From Carcharhinus amblyrhynchos (lineage: Eukaryota), in NCBI GenBank assembly GCA_965287045.1, contig OZ336878.1, positions 104,656,001 through 104,720,000 of the forward strand: a stretch of DNA of 64,000 nucleotides. Reading direction: 5' to 3'. Under the pieces are notes generated by a model. It saw only the letters and a list, made by a program, of their open reading frames with translations. It searched no databases and was not told the origin of the DNA. A program made the translations under genes and the position numbers. Positions 6,763-59,213 of this stretch are shown here, in pieces. The first letter of the stretch is position 1. Each line of letters begins with the position of its first letter.

Positions 6763-6798
6763 CTTTATCTTGCTGACTGAGAAGTGCCTTCTTCAATT
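6763..6798 (-). CDS. Micro-exon (36 nt): ELKKALLSQQDK
   Basis: ttctttctcgtgttaacag|AATTGAAGAAGGCACTTCTCAGTCAGCAAGATAAAG|gtaagc. Confidence 0.85.
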
Positions 6799-6853
6799 CT
6801 GTTAACACGAGAAAGAAGAGTTTGAAGATTAATTTGTTTCATGCTTGTCATGT

Positions 6854-8246
6854 TAAGAACATAAGAAATAGTAGCAGGAATAGGCCATTTACCACTTCGA
6901 GCCTGCCCCGCCATTCAATAAGATCATGGCTGATCTGAAGTGGATCAGTTCCACTTTCCCGCTTTCTCCCCATAACCCTTAATTCCCCCGTCTATCAAAA
7001 ACCTACCTACCCGTGATTTAAATATATTTAGCGAGGTAGCCTCCACCACTACAAGGGGCATAGCAATCCAGAGTTTCGCCACCCTTTGAGTGAAGAAGTT
7101 CCTCCTCAACTCCGGTGTAAACTGCCCCCACCCGTTATCTTGAAACTGTGCCCTCTAGCCCTGCTATCCTTTCTAAGCGGGAAGAATCTCTCTAACTATA
7201 CCCTATCCATCCCCTTCATTTTCTTATACGTCGCTATAAGATCCCCCCTCATCCTTCTAAACTGCAACGAGTACAGACCCAGTCTATTTAGTCACCCTTC
7301 ATAGTCCAACCCATTAATCTCCGGTATCAGCCCAGTGAACCTCCTCTGCACTCCCTCCAAGGCCAATATATCCTTCCGCAAGTGCGGCGACCAAAACTGC
7401 ACACAGTACCCCAGCTGCGGCTTCACCAGTACCCTGTACAGTTGCAGCAAGACCTCCCTACTTTTACATTCTATCCCCCTTGCTATAAAGGCCAGCATTC
7501 CATTCGCCTTCTTGATCACCTGCTGCACCAGCAGACCGGGTTTTTGCGACTCGTGCACAAGGACCCCCAGGTCCCTCTGCACCGTAACATGCTGCAGCTT
7601 TTCGCTTTTTAAATAATAATCCCTCGACTATTGTTTCTGCCAAAGTGGATAACGTCACACTTGCTAAAATTACACTCCATCTGCTAGGTCCTCGCCCACC
7701 CTCTCAGCCTATCCAGATCTGTCTGCAGACTTTCCACATCCTCCACGCAATTTGCTTTTCCGCTCACCTTCGTGTCATCAGCAAATCTCGTCACCGTACA
7801 CTCAACCCCCTCCTCCAGATCATCTATATAAGTGGTAAATAGCTGAGGCCCCAGCACCGATCCCTGTGGCACTCCACTAGTCATCAACCGCCAACCAGAA
7901 TAGTACCCATTGATACCAACTCTCTGCTTCTTATTCGACAACCAATCCTACATCCACGCTAACACCTTACCCCCAACTCCATGCACCCTAACCTTCTGTA
8001 GCAACCTTTTATGAGGCGCCTTATTAAACGCCTTTTTGAAATCTAAAAATGCCACTTTCACCGGTTCCCCTCTGTCTACCGCACTAGTCACATCCTCATA
8101 GAAATCCAATATATTCGTCAAACACCACTTCCCCTTAACGAATCCGTGCTGCGTCTGCTCTATCAAACCATTATTTTCAAGGTGCCTCGCTATTCCTTCT
8201 TTGATGATGGGTTCTAGCATTTTTCCAACTACAGGTGTTAAACTAA
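6854..8246 (-). mobile_element. CR1-clade LINE (HER1-like), 5'-truncated, ORF2 disrupted
   Basis: RT fragments FLDFKKAFNKAPH, SGVPQGSVLGPQLF, RFADDTK; (cttatgtt)-type tail; closely matches 62387-63785. Confidence 0.95.
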
Positions 8247-8713
8247 TCTTATTCAGAACTAGTCTTATTCCGAACTGCCAGGAATGTACAAGCAGTTTTA
8301 CAGGTATATGTCGGGACATACATCGGAAAGCAAAACTGTACAATAATAATGTTACTGCAGAAAAATATGTTTACGGATTAATAAAAAAATCTTCAAAAGT
8401 TGAATGGTGTGCTACTGATTCAATTATGCCTACAAAAAACCTCAAAAATGATTGTTAAATGATGAACAATTATATTTTGTTAAAGCATTAATGTGTTAGG
8501 AACGATCATGAAGTCATTTGACGCAGGCTTTTCGAACATGAATGAATCAAAATAAATGTATATGCAGCGGTCTTCATGGACAAAACAAATTTATATGCAG
8601 TCAGTTGCACGAAAAGTCTCCATTTTGCACCAACGAATTCATGAGTGTAGCTAACTAGTAAGATAAATGGTAAATGCATTATAAAAGTCATTAATAAAGA
8701 AATATTGGCTTAC

Positions 8714-8740
8714 CAATGTCTTTGGCAAGCAGTTGCTGTT
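8714..8740 (-). CDS. Micro-exon (27 nt): KQQLLAKDI
   Basis: gatcttgtttttcag|AACAGCAACTGCTTGCCAAAGACATTG|gtaagc. Confidence 0.85.
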
Positions 8741-9736
8741 CTGAAAAACAAGATCCCAAAAATAATTTCAAATGTTGACTGCAATCGGAATGCATTCAGT
8801 GCAATATACAATATGGTACAACGGTTCTCAGGTAAATGAGAATTTGAACTCGATGGTTACCAGCGCAGTGACGATATTGCTTATAAGAACTCGGTGGCTT
8901 CCTCTTCCTCGGACAGCATCACTTTTTTGCTCTTGCAGGCCATAAATGATACTTGAAACTAATTAGACCAAGAATGAACGTAGCCTAAGTGTTTCTGCCT
9001 TCTTCCTTATCTGTGGATTTGGGATTGGCAGTGAAAAACATACTATCATCAATGAACTTCTTACTTTCAAACTGATGTCGAGGGAAATAAATCGTCAAAG
9101 CACGCGAATTGGTGCGCTCAAATAGCAGTGATGCGTGACACCACTGAGGCGACATCCTGTTGCTGAGCGGATTGTTGTCCAAGGCTCATGTTGGGACCGA
9201 TCAAACACATAAAGACATATTATGAAGTTAGCCTCGATCCCAACTCTTTTTGACTGTCTCATGAATGTGAGCATCATTTGTTTCATTCTGAGTGGGATTT
9301 TGGGATTTTTTAAAAAACTAAAACAAACTTTATTTACCAATACAATCTATCTATAATAAAAATAATTAGCGTACATTTTTTCCAATGGTTTTACCGAAAA
9401 TTGACAAGGTATAAGTGTTAACTGTTGACTTATCCCTATTCCTTCCAATTTAATTAATGTTCCTCAGAGATAAACAGCTGTTCAAACTCAGTTATTAAAA
9501 ATGCACTAGCTTACGTGGACTGCTAGTTCTCAACTTCTTAATACCTTCTGAGAGATTCCTATATTTCTAGTAGGTGTATGAGTTCAATTTCCAAACAGAG
9601 AGAGAGAGAGTACTTGCAAAATCCAACCAGAACTGTCTGTATGTCTTCCTCCATAAGTCTAGCTTCTCCAATTAGCACGTGATACGCTCTGGCAATCAAG
9701 GTAATTAAATGCTACTCCGAAACTCCAAATAATATG

Positions 9737-11100
9737 GGGATACCGGCGTTGGACAGGGGTGGGTACATTAAAAAGTCTTACAACACCAGATTAAAGTCCA
9801 ACAGGTTTTTCTGGTATCAGGAGTGCTGCTTGTTCATCAAGTGAATGGACAGTTGGGTTCACAAACACGACATTTATAGACAGAGTCAATTGCAGAATAA
9901 TTGGTTGTCTTCACAGGTACAGACAATACGAGTGGAGTGAGGGATAATCACATGTTAATGAGGTGCGAATTGTCTCAAGGCAGGACAGTTGGTAGGACTT
10001 TCCAAGCCCAGGCCAAATGTTGGAGGTTATACGTATTGCATCATAAACACTAGGCCACCGTTGAGGCCATCCTCATGGAACATGGCTGTCAATTACTGTT
10101 TAGCGACATTGCATTGTGTGTCTTGAAGAACGCCTTGAAGAGCGCTTACCTGAAGATTGGAGGCTGAATGACCTTGACTGCTGAAGCATTCCCCGACAGG
10201 AAGAGAACACTCCTGCCTGTTGATTGTCATAAGGCGTCTGTTCATCTATTGTCACAGCATCTGTATGGTGTCACGTATGTACTCTGTCCCTGAAGACATC
10301 CCTCAGTGTATGAGGTGGACAGTGTTGTCCGAGTTGGATCGATATGTACCGTACCCGTGACAAGAACATAAGAACATAAGAAATAGGAGCAGGAGTCGGC
10401 CATCTAGCCCTTCGAGCCTATCTTGCCATTCAACAAGATCATGGCTGATCTGAAGTGGATCAGTTCCACTTTCCCGCTTTCTCCCCGTAGCCCTTAATTC
10501 CCTTGCCTATCAGAAATCTATTTACCCGTGACTGAAATATATTCAGCGAGGTAGCCTCCACCACTTCAATGGGCAGAGAATTCCAGAGACTCACCACCCT
10601 TTAAGTGAAGAAGTTCTTCCTCAACTCTGATCTTAACAGTTCCCCCCCACACTCTTATTTTGAAGTTGTGCCCTTTAGTTCTGCTATCCTTTCTAAGCGG
10701 GAAGAATCTCTCTACATCTACCCTATCGAGCCCCTTCATTATCTTATAAGATCCGCCCCCAGCCTTCTAAACTCCAACGAGTACAGACCCAGTCTATTCA
10801 ATCTCTCCTCATAGGCTAGCCCCCTCGTCTCCGGTATTAGCCTTGTGAACCTTCTCTGCACTCCATCCAAGGCCAATATATCCTTTCGCAAATGCGGCGA
10901 CCAAAACTGCCCACAGTACTCCAGTTGCGGCCTCACCAGTGCCCTGCACAGTTGCAGCAAGACCTCCTTGCTTTAATATTATATCCCCCTCGCTATGAAG
11001 GCCAACATTCCATTCGCCTTCTTGATCACCTGCTGCACCTGCAGACTGGGTTTTTGCGATGGGTGGCGTTAGCGTGATAGTGTGATGAATCGCCAATGGA
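9737..11100 (-). mobile_element. Penelope-like element, 3' part (degenerate GIY-YIG region plus terminal repeat), interrupted by CR1
   Basis: Minus-strand translation ...RQECSLPVGECFSSQGHSASNLQVSALQG... and ...HEDGLN; terminal motif caacaccagattaaagtccaacagg also at 34925-34950. Confidence 0.75.
10361..11059 (-). mobile_element. CR1-clade LINE 3' fragment inserted in the Penelope-like element
   Basis: ALVRPQLEYCGQFWSPHLRKDILALDGVQRRFTRLIP; same 3' UTR and tail as other copies. Confidence 0.95.
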
Positions 11101-11151
11101 CAGCCCAAGAAACAAACAAAACTATCTTGGTTCTGATTTAAATATACATCC

Positions 11152-11194
11152 CATTATCTAGGATTATTTACGTCATTATCTAGGATTATTTACG
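11152..11194. repeat. Tandem duplication, 22-nt period
   Basis: cattatctaggattatttacg twice, separated by 1 nt. Confidence 0.9.
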
Positions 11195-11849
11195 ATTCTA
11201 CATTCTCAGCAGTTGGGCTGCCTGCAAGAGACAAATTAGCACCAACATTATCAAAGTTTTCGTTTTAAATATTCCCTTCACAAAGATCAAGATGCAAAAT
11301 CCATGTCTTAAAGGGACAGTATCTTCACACTCATAACCAGCTTTATTTCTATTGAATATGAGCTTACGTGATGAACATTTGCCCTATGTTCCCCTCTTAT
11401 TTCCTTATCGTTTCATTTGGTAGAACATTGTTTTGATGCCGATGGATGGAGACATGGCTCCCCACTGGAATTCAGTTATTTGTATGTGTTTGGCAGGAAT
11501 ATGCTCTGAAAACGCATTGCTACCCTTTGCTGTGGGGACTGTGTTCTCGAAAATAATTACTGCTGAGATTGATAGAGTTTTGATTCATCAAGATATCAAT
11601 GTTCACAAGGAAAGTGCAGGAACTTTATACATGAGAAATTTTGAATCGGTCTTGATCCAAAGGTAAGGCAGAGCAGACTCGACGTGTTGAATGGCCGATT
11701 TCTCTTCCCATTTCTTATTATATTCCGGAAATGAAAAGCCGTCACTGATGAGCAGTGGTGAACATCAGTGAGTCTAAACAGAGTGCTTAACGTCTTGACA
11801 CATCGTATGTAAGTCATATTGCACTGTTTCCTCGTTCAAGAGGAGGTAA

Positions 11850-13422
11850 GTTGGACTATAACATTAAATGGCATGCCCTGTGTAAGATTGCATGAAACAT
11901 TTGGAATAAAATTAACCCGTTAACTGCAGACTTTTTGACAAATGAGTATGATTTAGTGGTCGTAATTGAGTCGTGATTCCAGCGAAACCAAGTTTGGAAC
12001 TTGATGTTCTTGTGTACCCTGTGTTTCGCAAGATTCAGTAGGAAGGACACAGGAGATGGTTTAGCTTTCCTTTTTCAGTGAGCGATCAGGGCTCAAGTGA
12101 AAAGCGGTACAGACACAGAAATCAAAGACGTAGAATCAGTCTTGCTTGAAAAAAAAACAGATCAAGGGAAAGGTGTCCTTGGTGACAGTAACCTGCAATT
12201 CCTCAGACAGCTGTCTCGCAGTGGCAAACAATATAACATAATAAATATTTAACATTGTAAAAAACATACTGCGATGTTATTTCCAGAAAACATTTGATAG
12301 GACACTATACAATAGTTTAACACACACCATTAGTTGACATGGGATTACGGGTAATCCATTAATTTGGGTAGAGGATTGGCTAACCAGTCATCTATCAAGC
12401 GGAGTTAGCATAAGATTTTTTCAGCATAGGAAGGAGTAACTAGAGGGATGAAAGTAGCTTCGTCCCTTCGGCTCCAATTAGTTACAATCTATTTTAACGA
12501 TTTAGACACATAAACAATATTTACTATTAACACAATACTCAGATGACAATAAAGTAACTGGAATAATGATTTGCGAAAATAACAGAAGACATTTGAAGAT
12601 TTGATATTAGCTTAAATGAATACGGCAGAATTTGCCAGTTGGGATCTAATTTTGAAGTTATCAACGTTGGTAGTAAAAATGTAAAAGTTAGTTATGTAAA
12701 TGGAGAAAATCATTGCAGTGTCCTTTAAAGAACAGTTTGCATCTTCCAGGGCAGCCATCGCAGAATCCAGTATGCAGGTGCAGCAGGAAATTGGGAAAGC
12801 AATTCGAATATTGACATTTACTCTGAAGGGATAGAGTATGGAAGTTGTGAATTGTTGCTGGTATTGTACAAAGCATTAGATAGACTTGATTACGATACTG
12901 TGTATAATTTTCGTCCCCTTACTTGAAGAGATATCAATTGCATCGGAGGCGGTACACAGAAGTTCCACAGGTGAACAGAGTGATTCCAAACATGAGGGGT
13001 TCTAATTGTGAAGCTAGAATGGACAATGTACTCGGTAGCGCTTATTAGAATAAAAAAAATCAATTTAAGACTAACAGAATGATGGGAAGGATTGATAAAT
13101 TCGACAGGGCGACACTTCCCCTTTGGGGCAACCTGGAAAAAGAGGTCATAGTTTTACTGCAAGGGTAGCAGACTTAAATAGAGATAAGCAGAAAATACGT
13201 CTGGTACAGCTTGCCAGTGTGTGGAATTCACCTACTCGAAGTGTGGTGGATGTCAGTACTTTAAGGAAGGGATGGACATATTTTCAATTCGCAGTGTTTG
13301 AAAGAGCTTTACAGGTAAGTGAAGCTGAGGCCGAGATGAGCTCAATCATGTGAGTATTAAATGGTGGAACAACCTGAGAGGTTGAGTGGCCTACTCCGGC
13401 TCTTTGTTCTTCGAATGCTTAT
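11850..13422 (+). mobile_element. Old CR1 LINE, internally deleted (endonuclease remnant, RT remnant, tail)
   Basis: Degenerate EN-like start, then RT-like gatgacaataaag and ggtacacagaagttccac segments and a cctactccggctc...cttatg tail. Confidence 0.7.
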
Positions 13423-13439
13423 GCATTTATTGTTCAATG

Positions 13440-16694: not shown

Positions 16695-16721
16695 TTGTGG
16701 TTTCGTGAAGTTTTTGCAGTT
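16695..16721 (-). CDS. Micro-exon (27 nt): ELQKLHETT
   Basis: ttttaattttaaatcag|AACTGCAAAAACTTCACGAAACCACAA|gtgagt. Confidence 0.8.
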
Positions 16722-16865
16722 CTGATTTAAAATTAAAACAGAGTTTAATTAGATTTGATGATCTATACTCTGAAAATCGAGATAAATAACAAAGTTCTGC
16801 ACAACATATATTTAAAACAATGTCATGAACAACATTTTCATAAATTGGAAAAAGCATAAACTTAC

Positions 16866-16892
16866 CTGCTTTGAGATGGATCAACCGTTCGT
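16866..16892 (-). CDS. Micro-exon (27 nt): DERLIHLKA
   Basis: gttaacttttgcag|ACGAACGGTTGATCCATCTCAAAGCAG|gtaagt. Confidence 0.85.
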
Positions 16893-19941: not shown

Positions 19942-19968
19942 CATCAGTTTTGTATTTCATGTCTTGGA
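19942..19968 (-). CDS. Micro-exon (27 nt): VQDMKYKTD
   Basis: ttttgttttcatttag|TCCAAGACATGAAATACAAAACTGATG|gtgagt. Confidence 0.85.
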
Positions 19969-20123: not shown

Positions 20124-20150
20124 CTTTATTAGCGTCGATGAGCTTCTTTT
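20124..20150 (-). CDS. Micro-exon (27 nt): EKKLIDANK
   Basis: catgtttctccgcag|AAAAGAAGCTCATCGACGCTAATAAAG|gttaaa. Confidence 0.75.
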
Positions 20151-20930: not shown

Positions 20931-20986
20931 CATAATGCACAAAATGTCAGAATTGCAGTTCTCTACCCACCTTGGATGGGAGATAA

Positions 20987-21059
20987 TGGCCTAGTGGTAT
21001 TATCGGTCGACAATTAATCCAGAAGCCAGATAAAGGTCTGATGCCTGGGTTCGAATTCC
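20987..21059 (+). promoter_or_regulatory. Internal Pol III type-2 promoter (A and B boxes)
   Basis: TGGCCTAGTGG fits TRGCNNARYGG; GGTTCGAATTCC fits GTTCRANNC. Confidence 0.7.
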
Positions 21060-23812
21060 TCCAGGGCAGATGGTGGATATGAAGTCAATTAAACAAAAAT
21101 CTGAAATTAAGATCTATTGATGACCACGAAACCATTGTCGATTTTCGGGAAAACCTAGCCGGTTCACTAATGTCATTTTGTGAAGGAAATTTGCCTTCCT
21201 TACCGGGCCTGGACCACATGGGATCCCAGAACCATAACAAAATGGTTGACTCTCAGTTGTCCTCTGAAATGGCTTAGCAACCACTCAGACGTATCCATCG
21301 CTGCAAAGTCTCAAGAAAGATATGAAACTAGACGGACCAGCTGGCTTTGACCTCGGCACCGGGAAAGACAACAGCAAAAGAAGGAGCCCTGTCAACTCTG
21401 CAACATCCTCCTTACCAACATCTGGTGGTTAATGGATGGCTAAGACTGGGAGAGCTGTCGCATAGATTCATCAAACAACAGCCTGACATACTGATTCTTA
21501 CGGAGCCGTACATCCAAAACCCTAAATATCACCATTACCATCCTTGGATATGTCCTGTCTCAGCGGCAGGACAAGACCCGCTGGAAGTGGTGGCACAATG
21601 GTATACAGTCAGGAGGGAGTTTCCGTGGGAGGCCTTAACATCGACTCCGGACTCCATGAAGTTTCATGGCTTCAGGTTAATTATGGAAACCTCTTCCTGG
21701 TTACCACGTATCCTCTTCTTTCGGCTGATGTATCGGTAATACTCCATGTTGAACAAAACTTGGAGGAAACACTGAGAGTGACAATGGCGCAAAATCTACT
21801 GTGGGTGGGGGATTTCTATTTCCATCACCAAGCCTGGCTCGGCCTGAACTGGTCTGGTCCTGATTGACTGGGTCTGCAGTAGGTGGTGAGGGAACCAACA
21901 AGAGGAAAAACATACTTGACGTCATTCTTACAAATCTGCTTTTGCAGATCCATCTGTCCATGTCATTAGCGGTACGAGTGAAAAAAAAACAGACTTTTTG
22001 GAGATGAAGTCCCGCCTTGATATTGAGAAGAACCATCCTCGTGGCAGTATCACCGTGCCAAATGGGGCAGAGTTCGAACTGTTCTTGGAAGTCAAGACTG
22101 TGCATCCATGGGGCTTTGCGGGTCATCAAAATAATCAGGAATGTACTGCCACAATCCAAAACCTCATGGCACTTCAAATTTCCCACTCAACAATTACCAT
22201 CAAGCCAGTGGATCAAACCTAGTTCAATGGAAACTGCAGGAGGGCATGCCAGGAGCAGCACTGGGGTATACCTAAAACTGAGATATCTCTCTGATGAAGC
22301 TACTGAACAGAGCTGCTTGCGTGCCAAAAGCAAAAAAAAGTGACTCAAAATCAGCTGATCAGACCAAAGCTATGCCGTTGTAGCACATCAATCGTGACTG
22401 TTGATGGAGAACTAATCATCTGAGTGGAGGAGGAATACTCCAGAAATATCCCTATCCTCGGTGATGGAGGATTCCAGTGCAAAAGATAAGACTAAGGTAT
22501 TTGTATTCATCTTCACCCAGAAGCGCCGATCCATTTCAGCTTCCACTAGTGGGCCCCCGCTTTCCAGTCTCCAGCAAATTAGATTCATTCCACGCAACAT
22601 CTAAAACGGTTGGAGGCACTGGATACTGCAAAGGCAATAGGCCCTGATGACATTCCGTCAATAGTACTGTCATTGCTCCAGAATTTGCCGTTCCCCTACC
22701 TAAGCTTTTGTAGTACATTTAGAACGTTGGCATCTACCCAACAATGTGGAACGTCGCCCCGATATGTCCTTTACACAAACAAGCAGGGCAAATCCAACCA
22801 GTAAACGTCCAAACAGTCTACGCCGGATCATCAGTAAAATGGTAGAAAGGGAATCAACAGCCCTGTTCAGCTGTAAGCTGCTCGCTGACGCCCGATTTGG
22901 TTTTCGTCAGGATCTCTTAGCTGCTGGTCTCTATACAACCTTGGTTCAATTACGGACAAAGAACTGAACCCAGTCATTAGGTGAGAGTGATAGCCCTCAA
23001 TATCAAGGTCACATTCGACCGAGTGCGTTATCATGGAGCACTAGCAAAACTATAGTCAATGAATATCAGGGGACAAGAACTCGGACGCTTCTAGGGCACT
23101 TTGGGCACTTCTAGGCCCAAAGACCTTCAGCTGCTTCATCAATGACGTCCCCTCCGTCACACGGTGAGAATTGGGGATTTTCCCCGATGATTGCACAATG
23201 TTCAGCACTGTTCAGAACTCCTCAGATAAAGAAGCAGGGAACGTTGAAATGCAACACGATGTGGACAATGTCTAGGCTTGGGCTGACAACTGGCAAATAA
23301 CATTTGGGCCGCACAAATGCCATGCAATGACCATCACCAGTAAGTGACATTCAACAACCCCCCACCCCTCCTTGGCATTTGATGATATTGCCATCACTGA
23401 GTGCCACACAGTGCCAACATCGTTGGGTTTACCATTAACCGGAAACTCAATTGGGCTCACCACATAAACACAATGGCTATAAAAGCAAGTCAGAGGTTAG
23501 GAATACTGCGACGACTAATCAGTTCCTGACTCCACAAAGCCTATCCGCCATCTTCAGTGCACAAGCCAGGAGCGCGATGGAATTCTCTCCACTTTCTTGG
23601 ATGGGTCCAGCTCCAAAAATACTTAGGAAGCTTGACACCATCCAGGAAAAAGCAACTCCCTTGATAGGCACCATATCAACGAACATCCTCTCCCATCCCC
23701 TACTGACGCTCTGTAGCATCAGTGTGTACTATCAACAAGATCAGCAATTCACCAAAGATCCTTAGCTCCTTCCAAACCAGAAAACTTCCGTCTCGAACGA
23801 CGAAGACAACAA

Positions 23813-24548
23813 ATAAGAACATAAGAAATAGGAGCAGGAGTAGGCCATCTAGCCCTTCGAGCCTGCCCCGCCATTCAATAAGATCATGGCTGATCTGTCA
23901 TGGCTCAGTTCCACATTCCCGCCCTCTCCCCATAACCCTTAATCCCCTCTCTTATCAAAAACCCATCAACCCGCGTCTTAAAAATATTTAGCGAGGCAGC
24001 CTCCCCCACTTCAACGGGCAGAGAATTCCAGAGATTCACCACCCTTTGAGTGAAGAAGATCTTCCTCAACTCCGTTCTAAACCGCACCCCCCCCCACTTT
24101 ATCTTGAGGCTGTGCCCCCTAGTCCTATTATCCTTTCTGAGCGGGAAGAGTCTCTCCACCTCTATCCTATCCATCCCGTTCATCATCTTATACGTCTCAA
24201 TGAGATCTCCCCTCATTCTTCTAAGCTCTAACGAGTACAAGCCTAGTTTATTCAGCCTCTCCTCATAGCTCAATCCCCTCAACTCCGGTATCAGCCTAGT
24301 AAACCTCCTCTGCACTCCCTCCAAGGCCAAAATATCTTTGCGCAGGTGCGGCGCCCAAAACTGCACACAGTACTCCAGCTGCGGCCACACCAATGCCCTA
24401 TACAGCCGCAGTAAGACCTCCCTACTTTTATACTCAATCCCCCTCGCTATGAAGGCCAACATCCCATTCGCCTTCCTGACCACCTGCTGCACCTGCAAGC
24501 TGGGTTTTTGCGACTCATGCACAAGGACCCCAAGGTCCCTCTGCACCA
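23813..24548 (-). mobile_element. Young CR1 3' fragment inserted in the tRNA-headed LINE; open ORF2 C-terminus (23905-24548)
   Basis: VQRDLGVLVHESQKPS...FFTQRVVNLWNSLP...GYGERAGMWN*; host LINE resumes after 24548. Confidence 0.95.
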
Positions 24549-24789
24549 CCTCCAATTGTAAGCTACTCTCGAATCCACTCACAATGCGGATTTGGAAATA
24601 TATCACTGTTCCTTTGCAGTCGCTCCGTCAAAATCCTGGAATTCCCTCCCGAACGGCATCGTGGGTCAAACATAGGCTGCAGCAATGCAAGAAAACAGCT
24701 TATCACCACCTTTTCAAGGGAAACTAGGGTGAGCAATAAAAGCTTGTCACCCAGCAGCGCCCGTGTCCCATGAATGAATAGCAGTAGTA

Positions 24790-28709: not shown

Positions 28710-28745
28710 CTGCAACTTCAAGTAGTTTAGTCAATTCCATTTGCT
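28710..28745 (-). CDS. Micro-exon (36 nt): EQMELTKLLEVA
   Basis: tttactcttttttag|AGCAAATGGAATTGACTAAACTACTTGAAGTTGCAG|gtaaat. Confidence 0.85.
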
Positions 28746-29867: not shown

Positions 29868-29894
29868 CTTTGTCTTTTATTTCCATTTGCTTGT
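29868..29894 (-). CDS. Micro-exon (27 nt): DKQMEIKDK
   Basis: gtcgttattttgcag|ACAAGCAAATGGAAATAAAAGACAAAG|gtaatg. Confidence 0.85.
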
Positions 29895-31572: not shown

Positions 31573-31599
31573 CTGACATTTTTATGCGGTTCTCTAATT
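31573..31599 (-). CDS. Micro-exon (27 nt): ELENRIKMS
   Basis: ttgttcgtttctaccacag|AATTAGAGAACCGCATAAAAATGTCAG|gtttgt. Confidence 0.8.
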
Positions 31600-33093: not shown

Positions 33094-33120
33094 CTGTCTG
33101 TTTATCAAGCATATGATTTT
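33094..33120 (-). CDS. Micro-exon (27 nt): ENHMLDKQT
   Basis: tttttctttcttatag|AAAATCATATGCTTGATAAACAGACAG|gtgaga. Confidence 0.85.
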
Positions 33121-35008: not shown

Positions 35009-35009
35009 A

Positions 35010-37484: not shown

Positions 37485-37632
37485 NNNNNNNNNNNNNNNN
37501 NNNNNNNNNNNNNNNNNNNNNNNNNNNNNNNNNNNNNNNNNNNNNNNNNNNNNNNNNNNNNNNNNNNNNNNNNNNNNNNNNNNNNNNNNNNNNNNNNNNN
37601 NNNNNNNNNNNNNNNNNNNNNNNNNNNNNNNN
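37485..37632. other. Assembly gap (148 N)
   Basis: Run of n. Confidence 1.
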
Positions 37633-39495: not shown

Positions 39496-39519
39496 CTGCT
39501 TCTTGACATTTGTTCAATT
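39496..39519 (-). CDS. Micro-exon (24 nt): ELNKCQEA
   Basis: cttgttatttccag|AATTGAACAAATGTCAAGAAGCAG|gtgaag. Confidence 0.75.
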
Positions 39520-45720: not shown

Positions 45721-47279
45721 TCACACTTATACTTCTGTTTCTGTCGTTCCTGCATCTAGTGCAGCCAAGGATATTTAAAGCTCAGTTTTCAGTTCCCTAC
45801 TTATCACTGCGTTTTATCACCTCTCTTGTCCGAATCCCCCCTGCTTGCTCCGATCCACTGCAGTGTATTTAAATCCTCTCTAAAGGTAGCAACCGTCATT
45901 GCCATCGACAATTCTGCCAGGTACTGTTACTCACAGCATCGTTTGCTGTTAGAGAGTTATAGCTCCTAATTAGCAGTAGGCATTTATGCCCCTATTCGAT
46001 ATGATTCCATCATCTGCTACGGGATACATAAGGGTTCTCAGGTGCACATTGCCTTGACGGCATTACATTGTGCCATTTCTCCTGGTGATACGTCCTTCCA
46101 GTAGGATAGGACCTACTTATGAAGAGTGATGCAGCTGAATGAAACGAATGAAAAGTACAATTCGGTGAGTAGTTTTATACGATGCCGTTGCCATTCTAAT
46201 CTGTTGAAGGGGTCTCACTGTTTGTGCACTAGTTATAGTGTCTTGAAGGTTGACAGAATGCCAACGGGCCCATCGACCCAACTTGCCCATACCGCCCAGT
46301 TTTTAATTCAATTTTCAGCCTTTATATTATCCTTACTCAAAGCCTTGTTAAAATACAAACTTGTACCCACCGCCACATTACTGTCCAGTTGTACATCACG
46401 CTGAGTATATAATGGCGATAAGAGCACATGGCATGGGACGCTGCTTGAATGCTGTCCGTTATGCACTCACAGTTAACATGAATTTCAGCAACAAACGCAA
46501 AGAAGGAAATATTGGAGCCACCAAAATAAAATACATTTATGGGCTGACAAATTAATCAATCGTTTTCATATTTTCAGTAAGCCATTATAGATTAGAGATT
46601 TTTTATATACTCAACGGAGAACAGCATGGTTGGAACAGCTAGAAAAACAAACGTTTGTTCAACAAATTTTTACCGTCCGTTTTCAATTTTATTTGGTCTT
46701 CTGCAAGAAGTGATTCCAATATTAACACAATTAATATGAAAACGTGAAAATTCAGCACGTATAGTAAAGGTCTAGTGTTCATTTATGAAGCGGTCAACGT
46801 GAACAATTACCCCTTGAACACCCCTCCAGAAACTTATTTGTATTCTTGTTCCTTACGTTGGCGGAACATTTCATTTCCCTAATTCCTGGCGTTTGAAACT
46901 TGGCTCTCCTACCACCGATTTATCACTTGCCGTTTTAACAACACAGATAAAGGAAAGCAACTCGCGCTAATGCTGAACTGAGCTTAGCGAATTCCAGTTA
47001 CCATACAAAGCAATAATATTTACTTGATCCTTTTCTTGTTCTCTGAATTGTCAATATTATTTCGTTCTGCAATATATCAGTTATTTTCAGCTGCGTCATA
47101 TGTTCATTACGATTATGAACTGTAAAATGCAAGAAATCTGAACCCTCTGATGGTTTTATTCGGTAGATTGGGAGATTTTTCGAGACTTTGCAGGATTGCT
47201 ATTACAGTTTTCATGGTTGTCAAAAGCTATTTAAAGAAGGAAAACGAAGCTGTTTGAGTGAAGCTTTTCCTCTGTGGCA

Positions 47280-49739: not shown

Positions 49740-49766
49740 CTAATTTTGCGCGCACGCTCTCTAACT
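49740..49766 (-). CDS. Micro-exon (27 nt): ELESVRAKL
   Basis: gtctttgtttccag|AGTTAGAGAGCGTGCGCGCAAAATTAG|gtaagc. Confidence 0.85.
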
Positions 49767-50412
49767 CTGGAAACAAAGACACAAAGTTATGTTCGTCCAT
49801 GTATTAATTATAGTTTGATTCGTGATCAAGTTAAATTTGTAGTGCCAAGAATATCACAATCATCGTCATTAATACCGACCATCAAACGTATTAGGGTTCT
49901 GTAGTGGGTGTAAATTTCCTGTTGGAAATTGTTGGTGGATTAATATGCTTGCGAGAATTTTGTTAATTTGAATGTAAAACGAGATGATTTAATCAAAACA
50001 TGTCAGAGATTTCAAATTACATGGAATTTCTTCTAAAGTAGATCCAGGAAATAACATAAAACGACATCACTCACACACGGTAACTGTGGCGAGAAAACAT
50101 ATTCTTCAACGCTAATGAACAACGTGTGGTGGCCGGCAATTCTCCTATTCTATACCGCTAACGTGACAGAACAATGCGATCATTAATTGTTGACGTATCA
50201 AATAAATGCTCGAAAGCATTTAGCAAAATTCAATTACATTTTGAATTATATCCTGTGTACAGACACACAAATACTGACCTACTCATTTTATTTAAGCCCT
50301 TTTCGCTGCCTGCAGTGCCCTTCCAACATATTTCCCGAAGAGTCGCTCCTTGATTTCATTTTGTTTTGTATACATTCAATGGTAAATAACGTCAGCAGAA
50401 TATCTGTATTAC

Positions 50413-50436
50413 CTTTTACTTGTGCAATCTTGTTAA
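50413..50436 (-). CDS. Micro-exon (24 nt): VNKIAQVK
   Basis: tttacttcatttatag|TTAACAAGATTGCACAAGTAAAAG|gtaata. Confidence 0.7.
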
Positions 50437-53400
50437 CTATAAATGAAGTAAATACAGTTATCATGTGTGCTGACTAATTTGTGTTTGTGTTTTTAATTAT
50501 AGTCAAATAAACTGCTCAAATCGCACTACAGTTGAAATACGAATTCAACTAATAGACTGGAATTGAAAAGTTAGCTTTTGTAAAAGGTTACTATGGAACC
50601 AGCATTGATTATTTTAAAATTGCATCTGCATCATATTGTCTTTAAAGAAGGAAACGCACAACTGGTGATTGTGTTGGCTTATATGTGACTCCAGACCAAA
50701 AAGAACCTGTTTTTTCAACTGCTCTCTCAAATGGTTTGCAAAACTTTTCACCTCAAGAGCAATTAGGAATTGATAATGAATATTAGTACTACCTCACGAA
50801 AAATGTTTTTTTTTAACCAATAACGGTTAATGACGTGTTCAGAATAATGGAGGTAAGAGGAGGCGGTGTTAAACGATTGGGAGCTGACTGACACCCATTC
50901 ATTAGCCTTCATTTTACTAAAATCTACCCTAATATCAGACCTGGATGTCAAATCGCTGTCTGGTCCATTAATGTAAATTTATCGTTTTTTTTCATGTGGG
51001 ATTTTACCATTGATCAACGCACGCCAAAATGCAAAAAGAAAAGAACGAAAAACAGTCAGAAAACCTCCCGTTCAACACTTAACTTGACATGTTCTTCATG
51101 GAAAAAGATGAAGAGAAGCAAACAATAATCTACAACTCCCGATGTTCCCACACAATTTTCCTCGTCATGGGCAATTCACCTGACGTGTTCTGATCAGAAA
51201 CATCATTTATTTAAAACAATTGATTCAATTTAAGTGGGAAAAGTGAACAGGAAAACAAACAAAAGAAAATCGTTGAACACAGTGGTGTTATTCAGGAAGT
51301 CAGTTCTGAGCTTTTGCCGATTACTAGAGGGACAGATGTATGCTAAATATTGTTAGCCTACTATCCATGCCTAAACTGAAGTATAGTGCTCAATAATTAC
51401 GTCATGAAGATTGTCATTATACTTCAGAGGGCACTTTTAGTAATTTGTCAAATGATATGAAGGTGCTCAACATAAATACTTAGTTTCATAAGGTAAATTT
51501 GATTCAACTGGTTCTAACGATAAATGTATGGATCGCCAGAAAACAACAATTTAGGTTCATTGATAAAGACACGGGAAAGAAAACGAATAAATAATTATTT
51601 GGAAAGCGAGTTGCAGGGTTGTAAGTAGCACGGATGAAGGGGTCGTAACTTCCATTGCGTGGGTGGCTTAATTCCGAAATTTTTTCACATTTCAACATTT
51701 GACAAGTATAGTTGAAGCTCAGACGTCTTGGTATCAAGTATTTCTAGCTGAACAGATATTAGAAAAATGATTTGATACGTTACTGAATTGGATTCGGAGC
51801 ACATCGCTTGCTGCAATTAAAGATAGATAGTAAAAATGTCATCGGAACAACGTACAATATAGTCATGGCTTTTATTTTCAGTTGGTAAATGTTATTTCGG
51901 TCCGAATACGCAAATGACTCATTAGCCACATGTTGCCTTTTATCCACCGCTTCAAAAATTAGTCACATATTGACATAAACACAGCCTATCCTTGCTGAAA
52001 TTGATTTCCACATCAGAATTTCTTCTCATGTGGAGGCGTAGATTGCAGATCTAGATGGTGAAGAGTAACAGGGATATCGGAACATCACCACGTGAAAGTT
52101 TCCCTGTCAGGCACTCACAGTTGTGGCTTGAAAATGTTTCAGTGTTGCTTCGCAGTCACTGCGTCAAAATCCTGGAATTTCCTCCCGAAACGGAGTGCAG
52201 CAGTTCAAGAAGACAGCTTCCTGCCACCTTTCAAAGACAACTAGTGATGGACAATAAATGGGCAGTCAGTGACTCTCATGACCCAAGATGAACAAAAACA
52301 AATGGAGACCAGACTTCAATGTTATATTTCCCCTTCCAGCAAAGGAATGATCCGGCGATTTCTGGCCATAACATTAGCCCAATATTTACTCTAACAAGTT
52401 ATTACACTCCAAATGTACTTGATGAATTACTCAAAATGCATTTTCTGTTATTGTTTCTCCTTATGTCATCATAGAATTATGTACCTTATTACTCTATATA
52501 GTACCCATCTTGAATCATATTTCTGCACATTTTAGTCAAATTCTGCTTTAGGTAAGTATTTACGTCCATTAGTGCAATGATTTTGTTTGCCATTTCCTCA
52601 GAAACGTTTTGGCCAAGCGTTGCAAGTTCCACGCTTCGACAAGAACTTAATTTTTTCCAACCTGTTATAATGCTGATATAACTGAATGGTCTTATGCCTG
52701 TCCAGAAATGGAAGTCGTCAGTGCTAGTTGTACGCACTTTTTGAAGCCATTACTCAGTTGTTTTCTCATACCATTCGTTATGTCAGGCTCTGTGTTCATG
52801 GGTCATCCCAGCTTGCCCATCGGGTGTAACTCATCTCGTGTCTCCCCAAAGCCAGTTCCAATCTATAATGTAGAAGTCAAGGATATGATGGAAACATGTT
52901 CTGTTTCCCTCTCCCATCATTTAGGAAGGTCGACAACGCCGAAGAAGCAATATTTATGAACATACGTTACAGAAGCGTTCACTACCTCCAACGGCGATGT
53001 AGTTTAGCAGTGTTTAGCATCTCTAAGTAATGCTGCAGGCACTCACCGAGACACTTTTGCCACCACATTCTAAACCCGCAATAGTGCAATCTAGAGGGAC
53101 ACCGCGGCAGACACATGAGAACATCCTCTCCTGGATCTTCCCCGTCAAGACACTCGCCACCCTAAGTTGGAGATATATCAGCCCTCCTTCAGGGTAGCCA
53201 TGTTGAACACCTGGAATCACCAATTAGGAACGGGCAAACATTATTGGCCCAACGAGCGATTCTCCAGTCTGTTGAATTGTTACAAAACAGGCTATCTGGT
53301 GGCGAAATAATGCTTTGTGCACGTTTTGTTTGCCTTTATGGTGAGACATCATTACGAATTTACAAGGAACGCCTTTCCTTGCAGAACTGCCAGTTTTAGC

Positions 53401-53739
53401 ATGTTTGGCATGTCTGTAGATACCTCAGTGACATAGTGCTGGCCACTCTTGCGGTTACAAGCATTGTACAGTGCTGAGAAATGCTGGAATTGGAAATTAG
53501 TGTCTCGGTGAAAGATCGTAACCTTGAACACCATGATATCAGTTTGCAGGTACGGTCTTGGGCACCTGATGGCGTGAGCTTTTTCCCTCCACACACACAC
53601 ACAAAAACAGGACGTTAGAATGGGGCTATTAAACACTACTTAAAACATCCCATTGTCCTCAGTACTAGTGGCAAGTGATAACGTCCTCATCCTCTTGCCC
53701 CATGCACTTATGCCTCCGTGGCCAAATTCCGCTTCAAAA

Positions 53740-54545
53740 CCATCTAAAATATCACTGATGACCTCACAGTGGTCAGTCTGATGTCAACAAGTATCGGGAC
53801 GAAGTACAGGAAAGAGATAGGGATCTTGTGATATGGTGCAACAACAAGATTGTCTACCTTGAAGTCTGTAAAACGAAGAAGACAGTCCTCGACTTGAAGA
53901 AGCGTAGCAGAAGAAATGCCCATGCGTAGATTATAGGCGACGAAGTGGAAGTATTCGAGAATCTCATATTTTCTAGATGACCAGATCGCTAATAACATTT
54001 CCTGGACTTTCCCCACTGATGCTATAATTAGGAAAGTCTACCAACGCCTGTACCGTCTCAGGAGACGAAGGGAATTCCGCATGTCCGTTCCAACTCTCAC
54101 CATGTTTTACAGACCGTACACAGACAGTATCCATTCCGAAGTATCAACGCTTGGTATGGCGCCTACGCTGCCCAAAACCGCAAGAAACTACGAATACTTG
54201 TGAACGTAGCCCACGCCACAGCATCGATCAGACTCCTATCCTTTGACGCTGTCTGAACTTCCCACTGCATCGGCAAAACAGCCTGCAAAATCACAGACCC
54301 CACACAACGCCGAAAATAATATTTTCCACCGTCCTCTCTCGGCAAAAAAAACAGAACGCAAGAAAAGTTTCTTCCCTGCTGCTATCAGACTTTTAAACGG
54401 ACATTCCATATACTATGTCGATCTTTCTCTACAACCTTACGATGATTGCAATGAACACTATAATTTGCCCGAATAGCCTACAAAATCCAATATTTTTCAC
54501 CCTAACCCATATAAGTTACAATAATAAATGAAATCAAATCAAATA
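53740..54545 (+). mobile_element. Rex1/Babar-type LINE fragment
   Basis: Collinear with 35780-36568; KSFFPAAIRLLN; aaatcaaatcaaat tail. Confidence 0.8.
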
Positions 54546-55479
54546 GACAAAGTACATCGTGCGTCTCAATGTGTCACTCTTATTCAAGTTATATTGAGTT
54601 TTGGTGTCTATCCAGCTGGAGTAGCAAAAAATGGGACATTACCAGATCTTCCTTCCTTCAGTCAAGCTGATGTATGAGCATAAAGCCTATCTCAAAGACT
54701 CTACATTTATTTTGATTTCACTGATGATTCCGACTGAAGTTCAATTCATAATAAGCACTAGCATGTTGTAGTGTTAAAATCATTTCTAAAAATAATGATT
54801 GCAACAAAACGAAATTACGTTCCGATGCACAAGTCCATAGATGAATATAACAAGACATTGCTATGAGAAACATACGGCGGTTAAAGCCCTATGCCCATCC
54901 TTCTTCATTGTCATGACAAGAGTGGTTCAAGTGAAATTCCCATTAACTTATGAGAAGCTGTTCCTTTTATTTTAAGTTCTACCTTTTCTGAAGTGATGTG
55001 AGCCCAACTCCTCTGCAGCTCTCTTTGGGTCTCATGAGGCGGCATGACAAAATTTAGGAACATGTCCTGATTCCTTATTTAATGTCTCTATGTCTCATTT
55101 GATCGAACGGCTAGTGATGCCATATTTAAGAGCCCTTGGCATGTTATTCGTAACCCACTTTATTGCCTGCTGTAGGCAACATATGTTCCATGCAATCACT
55201 GATGGGAAGGGCTTTTGGAATGCTGGAGGATTATGATCCCACATTGGTGAATGGGCGACTTTATAATTACAAATGACAATGCGTTGTGCCTCAGAGAAAA
55301 AGAAAGGTAGGAGATGAGGTGCTTTCCTGTGTCTGCATTTAGCGGACAGAGTTCGCATAGTTCGAAGATGCAGTGGAAGTGAGATGCTGCATTGCACCCT
55401 TTTTGTGCCACAGGCTGCTTGCGCTGTGTGTCTTTGATAGAGTAAGCACATGCTGAAGTTGGCTTACGGAATGCAACTG

Positions 55480-56175
55480 AAGAGTTGGTGTCCTATATCG
55501 CTTCTTGAGTGACTTTGGTGTCACGGTGACAAAACACATTGTTTTTGCCTCTTTGGCTCCATTACAATTCTGCAAGGCATTGGTCAGGCCACACTTGGAG
55601 TACTGTGTTCAGTATTGATCACCTCTTTTGAGGAAAGATGAGGCGGAACTGGAGACAATATAGAAGAGGTTTACTAGATTAAGTCCAGGTTTGAAAGGGC
55701 TTGAAGAGTGGCGGTTGTGTAGCGAGGGCTTGTACATGATGAAGTACAGAAGAATGATGGGGGGTTTGATTGAGATGCATAAAATACTCAACTGAATTAT
55801 GAAAAAGTAAATGTTAACCACAAGTTCCCACTTCTAGAACAGTCTCGGACATGAGGTCATAGTTGTAGAGTAAGACGGTGAAGGTTGCGGTAAGTGAGAA
55901 AATAGTTTGACGCGTCTCACATAGTGTTGTGAATCTTTGGAAGTTATTGCCCCAGAATGCCGTAGATGCAGAAACAAACAATGGATTCAAGAAAGGCATA
56001 GTAAAATATTCGATCAAAAGCGGAATAAAAGGCCATGGGCTAAAGGAAGGCAAGTGGAGTTAGGATGAGATGGAGATCAGCCATGATCATATATGATAGG
56101 ATCATATATGATAGGATCATGGGCTCTAAGGGCTGAGTTGTCATCTCTCGCTCCAAATTCCTACCTTCATAAGTT
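55480..56175 (+). mobile_element. Old CR1 3' fragment
   Basis: caaggcattggtcaggccacacttggagtactgtgttcag; CR1-type 3' UTR. Confidence 0.75.
56085..56120. repeat. Tandem duplication, 15-nt period
   Basis: gatcatatatgatag x2 plus gatcat. Confidence 0.9.
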
Positions 56176-57379
56176 CCAATATTATGTTTGTCTGTTATGG
56201 GATGGAAGGAAGTCGACTGGTGTTGGATACTTTATTTGATAGTTGGAGTATACGATTGCTGGTAGATGTTGTAATAGAGTCTCTGGGCCTCCAGTTTAGT
56301 TGGAATTTGCTCTACTGTACACGGACATAATTCTACAAATTCACTAATTTCTTCAGTGTGGACATTCAGGTTCTTGAGTCCACTCTTCTTATTTAGGGGT
56401 TCTGCAGTTGGTACCTGCTTCTGAGATGATATAGTCGTTTGAGGATATTTCCTGGCACAGAAATTGAAGATGGTCACCTCATGCCTAACATGCTATTGTG
56501 TGTTGTGGACGCAGAAATTTCAAGGGCACCTTATCAATCAAACGGGCTGCTTGGCCCAATACAAATATAAGATGTTTAAGCGTTGTTGCAGCTTTAAGCA
56601 TTTACACATGTATTGCAAAACTTAACTTGTACACATCGTGGGAAGTAGCTGTGGGGTTAGGTGATTAATTCTTTGCTGCAGAAGTCAATATCACTGGTGT
56701 ACTTATACTTCCATTGATTTTGTTGTTCCTAATGAGACACTGATAATTTTTTAGCTAAACGCATTTCATATCGCTGGACAAGGTCGTTCAAGAACGAAGT
56801 ATGGATATGTAGAAATTTAAAAATCTTACCGGATGATAGTGATGTAAGACTTCTACGAGGCTTCGATTTGTCTGTGAATGGCGTTTTCTTGTTATTCTTT
56901 GCATAGATAGAGTATAATTGAATTTGTTTCGAGAGCTGCTAAAATGTTCCTTTCCATTTTGTGAATAATTTCCGATGGTTAACTTATTAGGCAATACGAA
57001 TTAGTCAACATAACTCCATGCTGCAATATGTTCTGTTCTTCCTTTCAGAAAATAGAGATCTATAGTGGTACTCGTGTGTGGCTACACAGGATTTGGCTTT
57101 CAATTGCTTCAATCCTCAGTCAGAAAAAAAAGGATAAACGCAATATTGTTCGTGTTTTGACGCATAGAGCAAATATGTTCTTTCATTAATGCATTATATA
57201 AACAATTATCACACGCGGTCAACAGTTCACATGAACATTTTTTGCATTATAAATGGATGATTTGTGTATGCCGTCAATATGTTGCAGATATATTACTCAA
57301 TAATATCAGAATCACCAAACAAATCACAGTATTCCATTCGGGATCTTAGAGCGAGGGTTCTGTACAACAGCATGAAACC

Positions 57380-57610
57380 ATATTGCGGAAAGGAAGTGGT
57401 ATTATTGTTGTTGACCGGAGAAATAAAATTTGCTCAGTGGTCAAAACGAACAAACGATAAAAAAAGAAGTCTCGCGAGATTTTGGCTTATCTGGCAACTT
57501 GCATTGAGAAAATTGACTGCTTAAATACTGCAATGCAAAACATTCAATGGCTGCAAAGTGCTTTCGAATGTTTGGCACTCATGAACCATTCCACATACAG
57601 ATAAATATAT
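57380..57610 (+). mobile_element. Possible ancient Deu-domain SINE 3' part
   Basis: cattcaatggctgcaaagtgctttcgaatg resembles the AmnSINE1/SacSINE1-type tail as recalled; weaker similar patches near 39930-40150, 51300-51480 and 53450-53580. Confidence 0.35.
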
Positions 57611-57739
57611 TCTGGCAATGTAAGGCAATGGTTATAACAGTTGCATCAGTTATGTTCTTGCACTGACGTATATTTCTATCACTTGTTTAGTTCATTAGAT
57701 ACATAATCCTGATTGGTCATACTAATTCGAAGGAAATGG

Positions 57740-58335
57740 ACACTTTTGTGCAAAGAACGCGTAGGGAGCACTGTTAACATCACTGCAAAATAGTGCAAAA
57801 CAGCTATGAAAGAAGCTAAGGAAATTTTGCATGTCAGCAATCACTCTCATCAACTCCAACAGATGCAGGATCGAAAATATTTTTTTTCTGCTTCTATCAA
57901 AGCTTGGTATAACTCCTGCTCTTACCAAAATAGCAAAGAGAACGAGGTCCAGTCCATCACGCAAACCAATTTCCCATCCGTTGATACTGTCTACATTTCC
58001 TGCTGCCTCGGAAAAACAGCAGCGTAATCAAGGACAACGTGAACCTCGGATATACATTCTTCCACTTTCATCCTCGGGAAAAGGATGCAAAATTTTGAGG
58101 ACACGTACCAACCGATTCAAGGACAACTCCTTCCCTGCCGCCATAAGACTTTTGAATCGACTTACCTCAGATTAATTTGATTTTTTTTAAACATACCATA
58201 TCTATGAGTGTAACACTAAAATCTGCACATCCCCCCTCCCTTCTCTATGTACGGCGTGCTCTATCTGCATAGCCTACAAGCAACAATAATACTAATGCAT
58301 GTAACGATATTAAATCAATACAAATAAAATCGATC
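57740..58335 (+). mobile_element. Rex1/Babar-type fragment
   Basis: RTRTNRFKDNSFPAAIRLLN. Confidence 0.8.
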
Positions 58336-58820
58336 AAATTTTTCTGAAACGCGCATTTTGTTTTACATAAAGAAAAGATTGCCTTCTTAGCACAAATGCA
58401 TTTCTGGACGTTATTTTCGCAAATGAGAGTGCTGCATAAAAGAAGAGAAAATGGTCCCAGATCATATTTTCTTGCATGCCTCAACTAATCTTCAGCGCGA
58501 TGGGTACACATATTGTCAGCAATACTGATGTACATGTTGTGCACCAGTTTCTAGTGGTCTTTTAAAAGAAATTATTTGCAGCCTGATTCTGAAATGGCAT
58601 CGAAAAAAAAACACGGAAACAACTTAATTGCATTGACATCAACAAGCAATGGCAAAACATTCGTCCGCTTGAGCAGCAAACATATACAATTTGTCAGCGG
58701 CAAAAAAAAACACCTTATTGCCTTCAATACTTGTTATGCTTTAGCTGCACATGAGATCTGCATCGTTTTAGGAAAACATGTATAAGTAGCAGAAAATTAT
58801 CTTCGACTTTAAAACATTAC

Positions 58821-58847
58821 CTTTCTCTCTTTGTTTCAGGTTGTCTT
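58821..58847 (-). CDS. Micro-exon (27 nt): EDNLKQREK
   Basis: tttgccttattag|AAGACAACCTGAAACAAAGAGAGAAAG|gtaatg. Confidence 0.8.
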
Positions 58848-59177
58848 CTAATAAGGCAAACGAGTAAGGCAAGAATGTGAAAACATATTGACTGTGAAGG
58901 CCTTGTATTTCTATATAATGATACACACATCGTTGTGCCCTGAAGAATGTGGATAAAGTGCACAAATGCCCTGACCCTTCCAGATCTTTTTGGCATGGTA
59001 AAGTATGCCTCATTATTGCTCTATCAATTGAGATTTTACTTAACAATATTTAGATTTTAAAACTCTGTTATCAGTACAATTTATTACGTGGAAATATGTT
59101 GCATAACAAGTGTGTCGAAATCGAGTGATATTTTAATCCTGAAACTGATTTCTTCTAATATATGAGGTTTTAATCAC

Positions 59178-59213
59178 CTGTCCTTTGCAGAGCTTGTTTC
59201 ATATTGTTTAGCT
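59178..59213 (-). CDS. Micro-exon (36 nt, phase 1-1) of coiled-coil gene: xLNNMKQALQRT
   Basis: Minus strand gttttgttttcttag|AGCTAAACAATATGAAACAAGCTCTGCAAAGGACAG|gtgatt; polypyrimidine acceptor, open frame. Confidence 0.8.

Follow-up and report, generated by a model that had tools for sequence, protein, structure and literature searches.

Coiled coils of heptad repeats drive dimer or oligomer formation in butyrophilin tails and TRIM proteins, where they act as a spacer for the B30.2 domain. The coiled coils of TRIM proteins are not known to be encoded by micro-exons. In the accessible portions of PMC4046983 and PMC5938342, the BG genes of chicken are described as tandem genes in linkage with the MHC (major histocompatibility complex), with tails of 13-36 exons of 21/24 nucleotides (nt) behind immunoglobulin (Ig) and membrane exons, and butyrophilins as carrying a few heptads followed by B30.2. 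Loss of RING is known in TRIM-like genes of fish from the available part of PMC3137616. The present analysis concerns a stretch of 64,000 nt from Carcharhinus amblyrhynchos, hereafter the window (assembly GCA_965287045.1, contig OZ336878.1, positions 104,656,001 to 104,720,000), in which a sequence-only reading had described 15 minus-strand micro-exons of a hidden coiled-coil gene. The segments can be assigned with great confidence to a tandem family of genes composed of an ATG exon, a long series of micro-exons and a terminal B30.2/SPRY exon. As our preferred but tentative explanation, the window exons would form the middle of one tandem copy with a dead head, the transcript of which would splice on into the following copy to encode a longer rod with one B30.2 head.

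Coordinates extend the window numbering outward, position x being C9:104,656,000 + x, where C9 denotes the contig of the window in the 2.92-Gb genome. The survey covered 1.66 Mb around the window (-800k to +864k) and 20 further samples of 10 kb, and the splice and composition scores are our own approximations. The tandem copies are termed copy 0, copy 1 (that of the window) and copy 2. The exons of copy 1 in the window, all of phase 1-1, and the principal features outside it are the following; those marked "added" are absent from the sequence-only reading.

59178..59213, minus strand, 36-nt exon, number 1 of the sequence-only reading
58821..58847, minus strand, 27-nt exon
56830..56871, minus strand, 42-nt linker exon with Pro and a weak acceptor, added
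51784..51810, minus strand, 27-nt exon with a weak donor, added
50413..50436, minus strand, 24-nt exon
49740..49766, minus strand, 27-nt exon
46674..46700, minus strand, 27-nt exon, added
39496..39519, minus strand, 24-nt exon
33094..33120, minus strand, 27-nt exon
31573..31599, minus strand, 27-nt exon, internal peptide the same in both copies and both catshark models
29868..29894, minus strand, 27-nt exon
28710..28745, minus strand, 36-nt exon
20124..20150, minus strand, 27-nt exon with a weak donor
19942..19968, minus strand, 27-nt exon
16866..16892, minus strand, 27-nt exon
16695..16721, minus strand, 27-nt exon
8714..8740, minus strand, 27-nt exon
6763..6798, minus strand, 36-nt exon, number 15 of the sequence-only reading
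4595..4621, minus strand, 27-nt exon, added
1915..1950, minus strand, 36-nt exon, added
+66,536-66,561 and +70,693-70,728, two decayed exons of copy 1 upstream of the window
+101,560-101,691, ATG exon of copy 1, upstream of the window
Downstream of the window as far as -233k, about 50 further exons of copy 1, with its broken SPRY exon at -267k
From -296k, copy 2, with its intact SPRY exon at -700k

A blind scan for splice motifs, made with no input from the earlier reading, recovered 14 of the 15 segments, and the remaining one (20124-20150, with a weak donor) was recovered once the threshold was relaxed. All 15 exist as described, each of 24, 27 or 36 nt, bounded by AG and GT, of phase 1-1 and with a repeat coverage of 0-1 in self-alignment. 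Concatenated in positional order they amount to 426 nt; the stated frame is free of stops, whereas the two alternative frames contain 14 and 11, and the peptide is without Pro, Gly or Trp. Five additional exons (56830-56871, of 42 nt, 51784-51810, 46674-46700, 4595-4621 and 1915-1950) bring the window total to 20 exons and 585 nt, all with AG/GT and in a single open frame without a stop, the translation of which contains one Pro. The 42-nt exon has low protein similarity and was placed by its position and by flanks resembling those of its copy-2 partner. Since three of the five fall within 6763..59213, the 142-residue peptide omits three exons. A run of N at 37485-37632 is flanked by two exons that the catshark model XP_038671248.1 joins gaplessly.

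The scoring against shuffled and plus-strand controls that had been proposed as a check gave 17 minus-strand phase-1 exons compared with a mean of 0.15 and a maximum of 1 in 40 block-wise dinucleotide shuffles; the same scan gave 0 on the plus strand and 3 and 2 in the other phases. With the composition filter off, 24 splice-flanked segments were found, compared with a shuffle mean of 5.1 (maximum 12) and 7 on the plus strand. That the segments are individually short and the scores our own would favor chance splice-like motifs in intronic DNA, a reading to which we give next to no credence in view of the shuffle and strand controls and the pairing of copy 1 with copy 2, and which is refuted by the colinear catshark models. 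The 15 segments are virtually certain to be real exons, a confirmed but incomplete set. High-copy intronic repeats of the long or short interspersed element type, with depth peaks at 20978-24780, 63529-63570 and 7007-7048 of the window, are a source of false exon calls and contain what we take to be reverse-transcriptase-like fragments.

A query with the ATG exon found XP_038671248.1 of S. canicula and XP_072329363.1 of S. torazame, the latter being, with XP_072329362.1, among the further catshark RefSeq models. XP_038671248.1, named "centromere-associated protein E-like", contains 18 of the window's exons in the same order, with gaps of 0 residues throughout a consecutive run of 16, and the single 23-residue gap in the chain corresponds to the 42- and 27-nt exons at 56830-56871 and 51784-51810. 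The window exons are 72% identical to catshark. The next accession, XP_038671249.1 ("zinc-binding protein A33-like"), holds the remaining rod and the SPRY domain (63% identity), and 61 copy-2 exons account for 565 of its 658 residues. The S. torazame model overlaps both S. canicula models, which indicates one gene of ~1,490 residues. As judged by these alignments, the databases hold the gene as separate, misnamed fragments. Because exons of 24-36 nt are joined exactly, the catshark models presumably have read support.

Relatives were also found in Narcine, Chiloscyllium, Hemiscyllium, Rhincodon and Cetorhinus, and the RefSeq isoforms of the related Narcine gene differ by exactly 6 and 9 residues. 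The frame-preserving exon skipping by which the sequence-only reading would tune rod length may draw indirect support from these isoforms. Its description of the gene as possibly unannotated and lineage-specific is not supported as it stands: RefSeq contains orthologous fragments from two catsharks, together with relatives from further sharks and from a ray, all of them misleadingly named. A coiled-coil query with the catshark C-terminal model, which is a weak test, returned no full-length relative of over 1,655 residues at E 1e-10. No publication on this gene family was found in the open-access literature, and the terms TRIM, B30.2 and BTN were not found in the available main text of PMC10751288.

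The unit design comprises a 132-nt ATG exon, ~80-120 phase-1 exons mostly of 27/36 nt and a B30.2/SPRY exon, extending over 350-400 kb per copy. The 132-nt exon is found at three places, +101,560-101,691 (copy 1), -296.3k (copy 2) and +716.3k (copy 0); past the acceptor it has 14 nt, the ATG and 39 codons, and it ends in a phase-1 donor. A genome-wide search for it gave 3 matches among 4 candidates. A donor upstream of the ATG exon is kept in copies 1 and 2 and likely closes a non-coding exon, in copy 1 near +103.3k, since its frame is closed in both. Exons called number 78 in copy 1, 106 in copy 2 and 74 in copy 0, counts that are lower bounds with some false calls included. The introns of the copies align at ~60-66%.

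Two SPRY-like stretches lie in the 1.66 Mb, intact at -700k (copy 2) and broken at -267k (copy 1). The SPRY sequence of copy 1 is disrupted by one stop and by 8 indels, of which 6 shift the frame; its exon retains an AG acceptor (score 3.2 compared with 7.9) and 52 open codons. The copy-1 exons directly before it, beyond -233k, are decayed or deleted, and the chain matches there are low-scoring and were not counted as exons. Where copy 0 ends, the flanking sequence can be aligned from +153k to +159k, and SPRY was not found there. By eye, the copy-0 ATG exon (+716.2k) is closer to S. torazame GCB74337.1 than is that of copy 1, and exons of copy 0 at about +511k to +545k are matched by S. canicula XP_038671246.1; the split of copy 0 likely predates the catshark lineage. 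A first reading of the locus as one megabase gene was replaced, given the three ATG exons and the broken SPRY, though the copies may still be joined by read-through.

The state of copy 1 was evaluated by comparison with copy 2. Upstream of -570k, 57 of the 75 copy-2 candidates pair colinearly with copy 1; 57 of the pairs have AG, 53 have GT and none has a stop. The ratio of nonsynonymous to synonymous change (dN/dS) was 0.38 (bootstrap 0.28-0.50) for the 57 pairs and 0.22 (0.12-0.37) for the 16 window pairs, with an identity of 76% in exons and 66.5% in alignable introns. Decay was simulated for 77 exons, chosen as intact, with rates from the dead SPRY and introns (assumed d = 0.20). The number of lesioned exons expected is ~54 had the rod been neutral as long as the SPRY, 8.6 for a tenth of that time and 4.5 for a twentieth. 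Two clear lesions were seen with guidance from catshark, a lost donor at +70,693 and an exon 1 nt short (26 nt) at +66,536-66,561, adjacent to each other just upstream of the window. Since 2 lesions were seen where ~54 were expected and dN/dS is below 1, selection kept the copy-1 rod for most of the time since its head died. Copy 1 is probably still functional.

Both lesions are also present in run X1, which indicates that the lesion at the 26-nt exon is no assembly error; the X1 contigs are ~98% alike, exon-exon joins were absent among the matches listed, and X1 gives nothing on expression. For a few further exons of the catshark protein, no place was found in one or the other of the two copies. 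An apparent lost donor at +96,067 was dismissed, the true 36-nt exon having GT.

The same lesions, shared with X1, together with the dead tail of copy 1 and a protein branch that, in the region of the window, is longer than that of copy 2 (0.22 compared with 0.14), are consistent with copy 1 being a recent pseudogene, functional for most of its history, whose window exons have had too little time to decay; 2-5 lesions are compatible with inactivation within the final 5% of the branch. We consider this doubtful, since AG/GT and frame are intact in 20 of the 20 window exons, and the lesioned exons are adjacent, their intact partners sum to 63 nt and their splice scores are weakened (2.3/2.0 compared with 5.5/5.6), as expected of a skipped module.

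If copy 1 is functional, read-through into copy 2 is somewhat favored over a headless rod. The transcript would skip the dead tail, joining the last intact exon near -233k to the ATG exon of copy 2 at -296k, a join that is possible because all exons, the copy-2 ATG exon among them, are open and of phase 1-1. The fused product would comprise ~870 + 1,490 = 2,350 residues by catshark coordinates, with the window exons spliced as in the RefSeq models, the heptads driving dimer or oligomer formation and the B30.2 domain presented at the end of the spacer. Read-through is the simplest joint reading because copy 1 is conserved N-terminally (branch to catshark 0.16 compared with 0.45 for copy 2, over 79 residues), copy 2 alone keeps the C-terminus and all exons are phase 1-1; the weakened acceptor of the dead SPRY exon was also counted in its favor.

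Expressed alone, copy 1 would yield a headless rod of ~870-920 residues ending in the 52 open codons of the broken SPRY exon or in a new last exon. Such a product, which we judge unlikely, might act as a scaffold or as a dominant-negative partner of the intact copy, in the manner of the soluble BG "zipper protein". Copy 1 owns an ATG exon and the upstream donor, dN/dS is 0.22-0.38 after the death of SPRY, the broken SPRY exon still has its AG acceptor, and chicken BG tails function without B30.2, as described in the accessible portion of PMC4046983, all of which agree with a headless rod. The faster N-terminal drift of copy 2 would be left unexplained, the acceptor is weakened, and a new terminal exon was not found in a search that was not exhaustive.

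Several points weigh against read-through. Copy 2 retains its ATG, an N-terminal peptide 64% identical to that of copy 1 and a good upstream non-coding donor, and it may be transcribed alone. The asymmetric N-terminal drift was measured over 79 residues. The 26-nt exon keeps AG/GT, and its inclusion would lead to a stop in exon 59178-59213. Of the 75 copy-2 candidates, 18 are without a colinear partner, and the pairing score took in splice flanks. The simulation, with its assumed rates and exons picked as intact, is compatible with death in the last twentieth of the branch. The exon junctions proposed for this species follow prediction and catshark models, and the catshark RefSeq models are themselves predictions.

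An extension of read-through, which we hold to be rather improbable, is that the tandem copies fuse by losing internal B30.2 exons, so that copies 0, 1 and 2, perhaps with the array to +1.45 Mb, would constitute one transcription unit of 1-2 Mb with at least 260 micro-exons. The product would then be a soluble rod that carries one B30.2 head and is several thousand residues long, the gene would have grown by serial decapitation, and internal promoters and exon skipping would set the length of an MHC-linked sensor or scaffold.

The family product is predicted to be a soluble, very long coiled-coil rod holding a B30.2 head at a distance. The catshark models have a hydrophobic period of 3.5, and hydrophobic residues fall at positions 1, 4 and 8 in 36-nt exons and mainly at 3 in 27-nt exons, positions from which 36+27 nt (12+9 residues) make three heptads. 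The AlphaFold model of the catshark C-terminal model (10-row alignment; mean pLDDT 66, pTM 0.28) has long helices with short linkers between them and a C-terminal beta-strand domain. The coiled coil proposed by the sequence-only reading is borne out by the period and the helical model, its suggested kinship of design with butyrophilin and BG tails is also supported, and the family ends in a B30.2 exon. That exon, in copy 2, has a phase-1 acceptor, lies 7 kb past the last micro-exon and matches PF00622 (E 1.9e-9), the best solved relatives being BTN3A1 (PDB, E 3.9e-14) and TRIM21. The N-terminal peptide contains an invariant Tyr-x-Asn, by the consensus a possible SH2-binding site.

The earlier proposal to inspect the flanks for receptor-type exons was answered by the B30.2 exon; signal peptide, Ig, transmembrane and lectin exons were not found. 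Across the rods of three catshark models, hydropathy over 19 residues peaked at 0.2-0.5, copies 1-2 contain no hydrophobic phase-1 exon of 45-150 nt, and the ATG exon is polar, with no signal peptide; a cytosolic location is inferred from the lack of signal peptide and membrane span. Triadin has a single membrane span near its N-terminus, and the suggested likeness to it fails, a membrane span not being found in catshark models or copies 1-2. Two BTN proteins, searched by tblastn over -800k to +864k, matched SPRY exons only, apart from a 28-residue noise match (E 0.63), and Pfam Ig and RING were absent from the catshark models. No V-set exon was found near the locus among the 150 of 1794 genome-search candidates scored. 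A TRIM query matched SPRY only, with no RING match at 103.7-107.0 Mb among the 150 of 491 candidates scored. Despite its CENP-E-like name, XP_038671248.1 has no kinesin motor domain among Pfam families (0 matches). Apart from the SPRY exon, regular-expression searches for motifs of Ig, RING, B-box, lectin and membrane type yielded noise alone among the matches listed, and a hydrophobic frame at +421k was dismissed, being read as an acceptor tract.

These results make it very improbable that the rod is the cytoplasmic tail of a butyrophilin- or BG-type receptor, or a TRIM coiled coil, with Ig and membrane or RING and B-box exons further upstream. In its favor, the B30.2 domain is nearest BTN3A1 and TRIM21 among solved structures, the neighborhood is TRIM-rich on an MHC-bearing contig, each of the three copies has an open frame through the 14 nt that precede the ATG, and the S. 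torazame model carries 22 additional residues. Against it, the BTN and TRIM queries match only SPRY exons in 1.66 Mb, no hydrophobic phase-1 exon is present, the upstream donor frame is closed in both copies and the S. canicula model starts at this ATG.

Micro-exons of the same kind span -693k to at least +861k. One calling rule over the 1.66 Mb gave 279 minus-strand and 21 plus-strand exons, the 279 including 148 of 27 nt, 79 of 36 nt and 26 of 24 nt. Between +0.90 and +1.45 Mb, 5 of 9 samples contain 3-4 such exons per 10 kb, and four samples from +1.50 to +1.69 Mb contain none. A second family gene at C9:106.38-106.45 Mb has micro-exons upstream of an intact SPRY exon at 106.38 Mb that is 47% identical to a Narcine protein, and is probably orthologous to XP_069775384-90 of Narcine ("zinc-binding protein A33-like"). 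Because this gene ends at C9:106.38 Mb, the cluster measures 2.5 Mb or more. Of the 82 MHC class I matches genome-wide, all 82 are on the contig of the window, at 89.6-101.1 Mb, the nearest 2.9 Mb from the 3' end of the cluster; an MHC class II search, which was uninformative, gave no match. RING matches lie on either side of the cluster, in TRIM-rich surroundings. An Ig V-set exon cluster is located at C9 83.9-85.6 Mb, on the contig of MHC class I.

Other elements were observed within the copies. Inside copy 0, from +347k to +444k, 42 tandem units, mostly 1.3-2 kb apart, each contain an exon-like segment of 27 nt and phase 1 that does not resemble the exons of the rod, with AG, GT and the open frame kept in 33 of 42; the array may be a recently amplified exon. 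A copy-1 intron contains, at ~-140k to -149k on the minus strand, which is that of the gene, an endogenous-retrovirus-like element with long gag-, pol- and env-like frames, the last with a Pfam TLV_coat match (E 1.3e-10). Fragmented retrovirus- or retrotransposon-like frames, labelled by motif resemblance only, occur at ~+370k to +376k and +593k. The linker region of copy 1 (-117k to -138k) contains a pair of 21-nt exon-like segments in three to four repeats at ~6.7-kb spacing.

The gene resembles the catshark RefSeq models in its ATG-exon peptide, exon chain and SPRY domain, and differs in that a single copy accommodates the catshark fragments, whereas two (copies 1 and 2) exist in this genome, one of them dead-headed. 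New here are the start exon, the tandem-copy structure, the copy with a dead head and the catshark orthologues matched directly to these exons. Both ends are now given of an MHC-linked cartilaginous-fish gene family stored as misnamed fragments, a basis for designing primers, antibodies and knock-downs. Whether tandem genes can fuse by way of symmetric micro-exons can be tested on the dead-head copy.

Like chicken BG and its zipper protein, as far as the accessible portions of the BG papers describe them, the shark genes are MHC-linked, tandem and encode a coiled coil by many small exons; the length of BG varies by splicing. In contrast to BG, which on the same descriptions lacks B30.2, the shark gene has no Ig domain or membrane span, ~80-120 exons mostly of 27/36 nt and a B30.2 end, and a tail of one-heptad exons of 21/24 nt was not encountered in the shark array. 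With butyrophilins it shares heptads with a B30.2 exon after them (intact in copy 2, broken in the copy of the window), BTN3A1 as the best SPRY match and MHC linkage, whereas Ig domains and a membrane span are absent and more than 100 rod exons replace a few heptads. With class IV TRIM proteins it shares a soluble coiled coil joined to B30.2 (PRY-SPRY) and clustering near the MHC, TRIM genes flanking the locus; it differs in the absence of RING and B-box and in a coiled coil about ten times longer and encoded by micro-exons. By the features tested, the shark gene as predicted works like the tails of BG and butyrophilins but belongs to none of BG, butyrophilin and TRIM. It would represent a third use of the module of coiled coil and B30.2 beside butyrophilins and TRIMs, and bears on their origin in an ancestral MHC.

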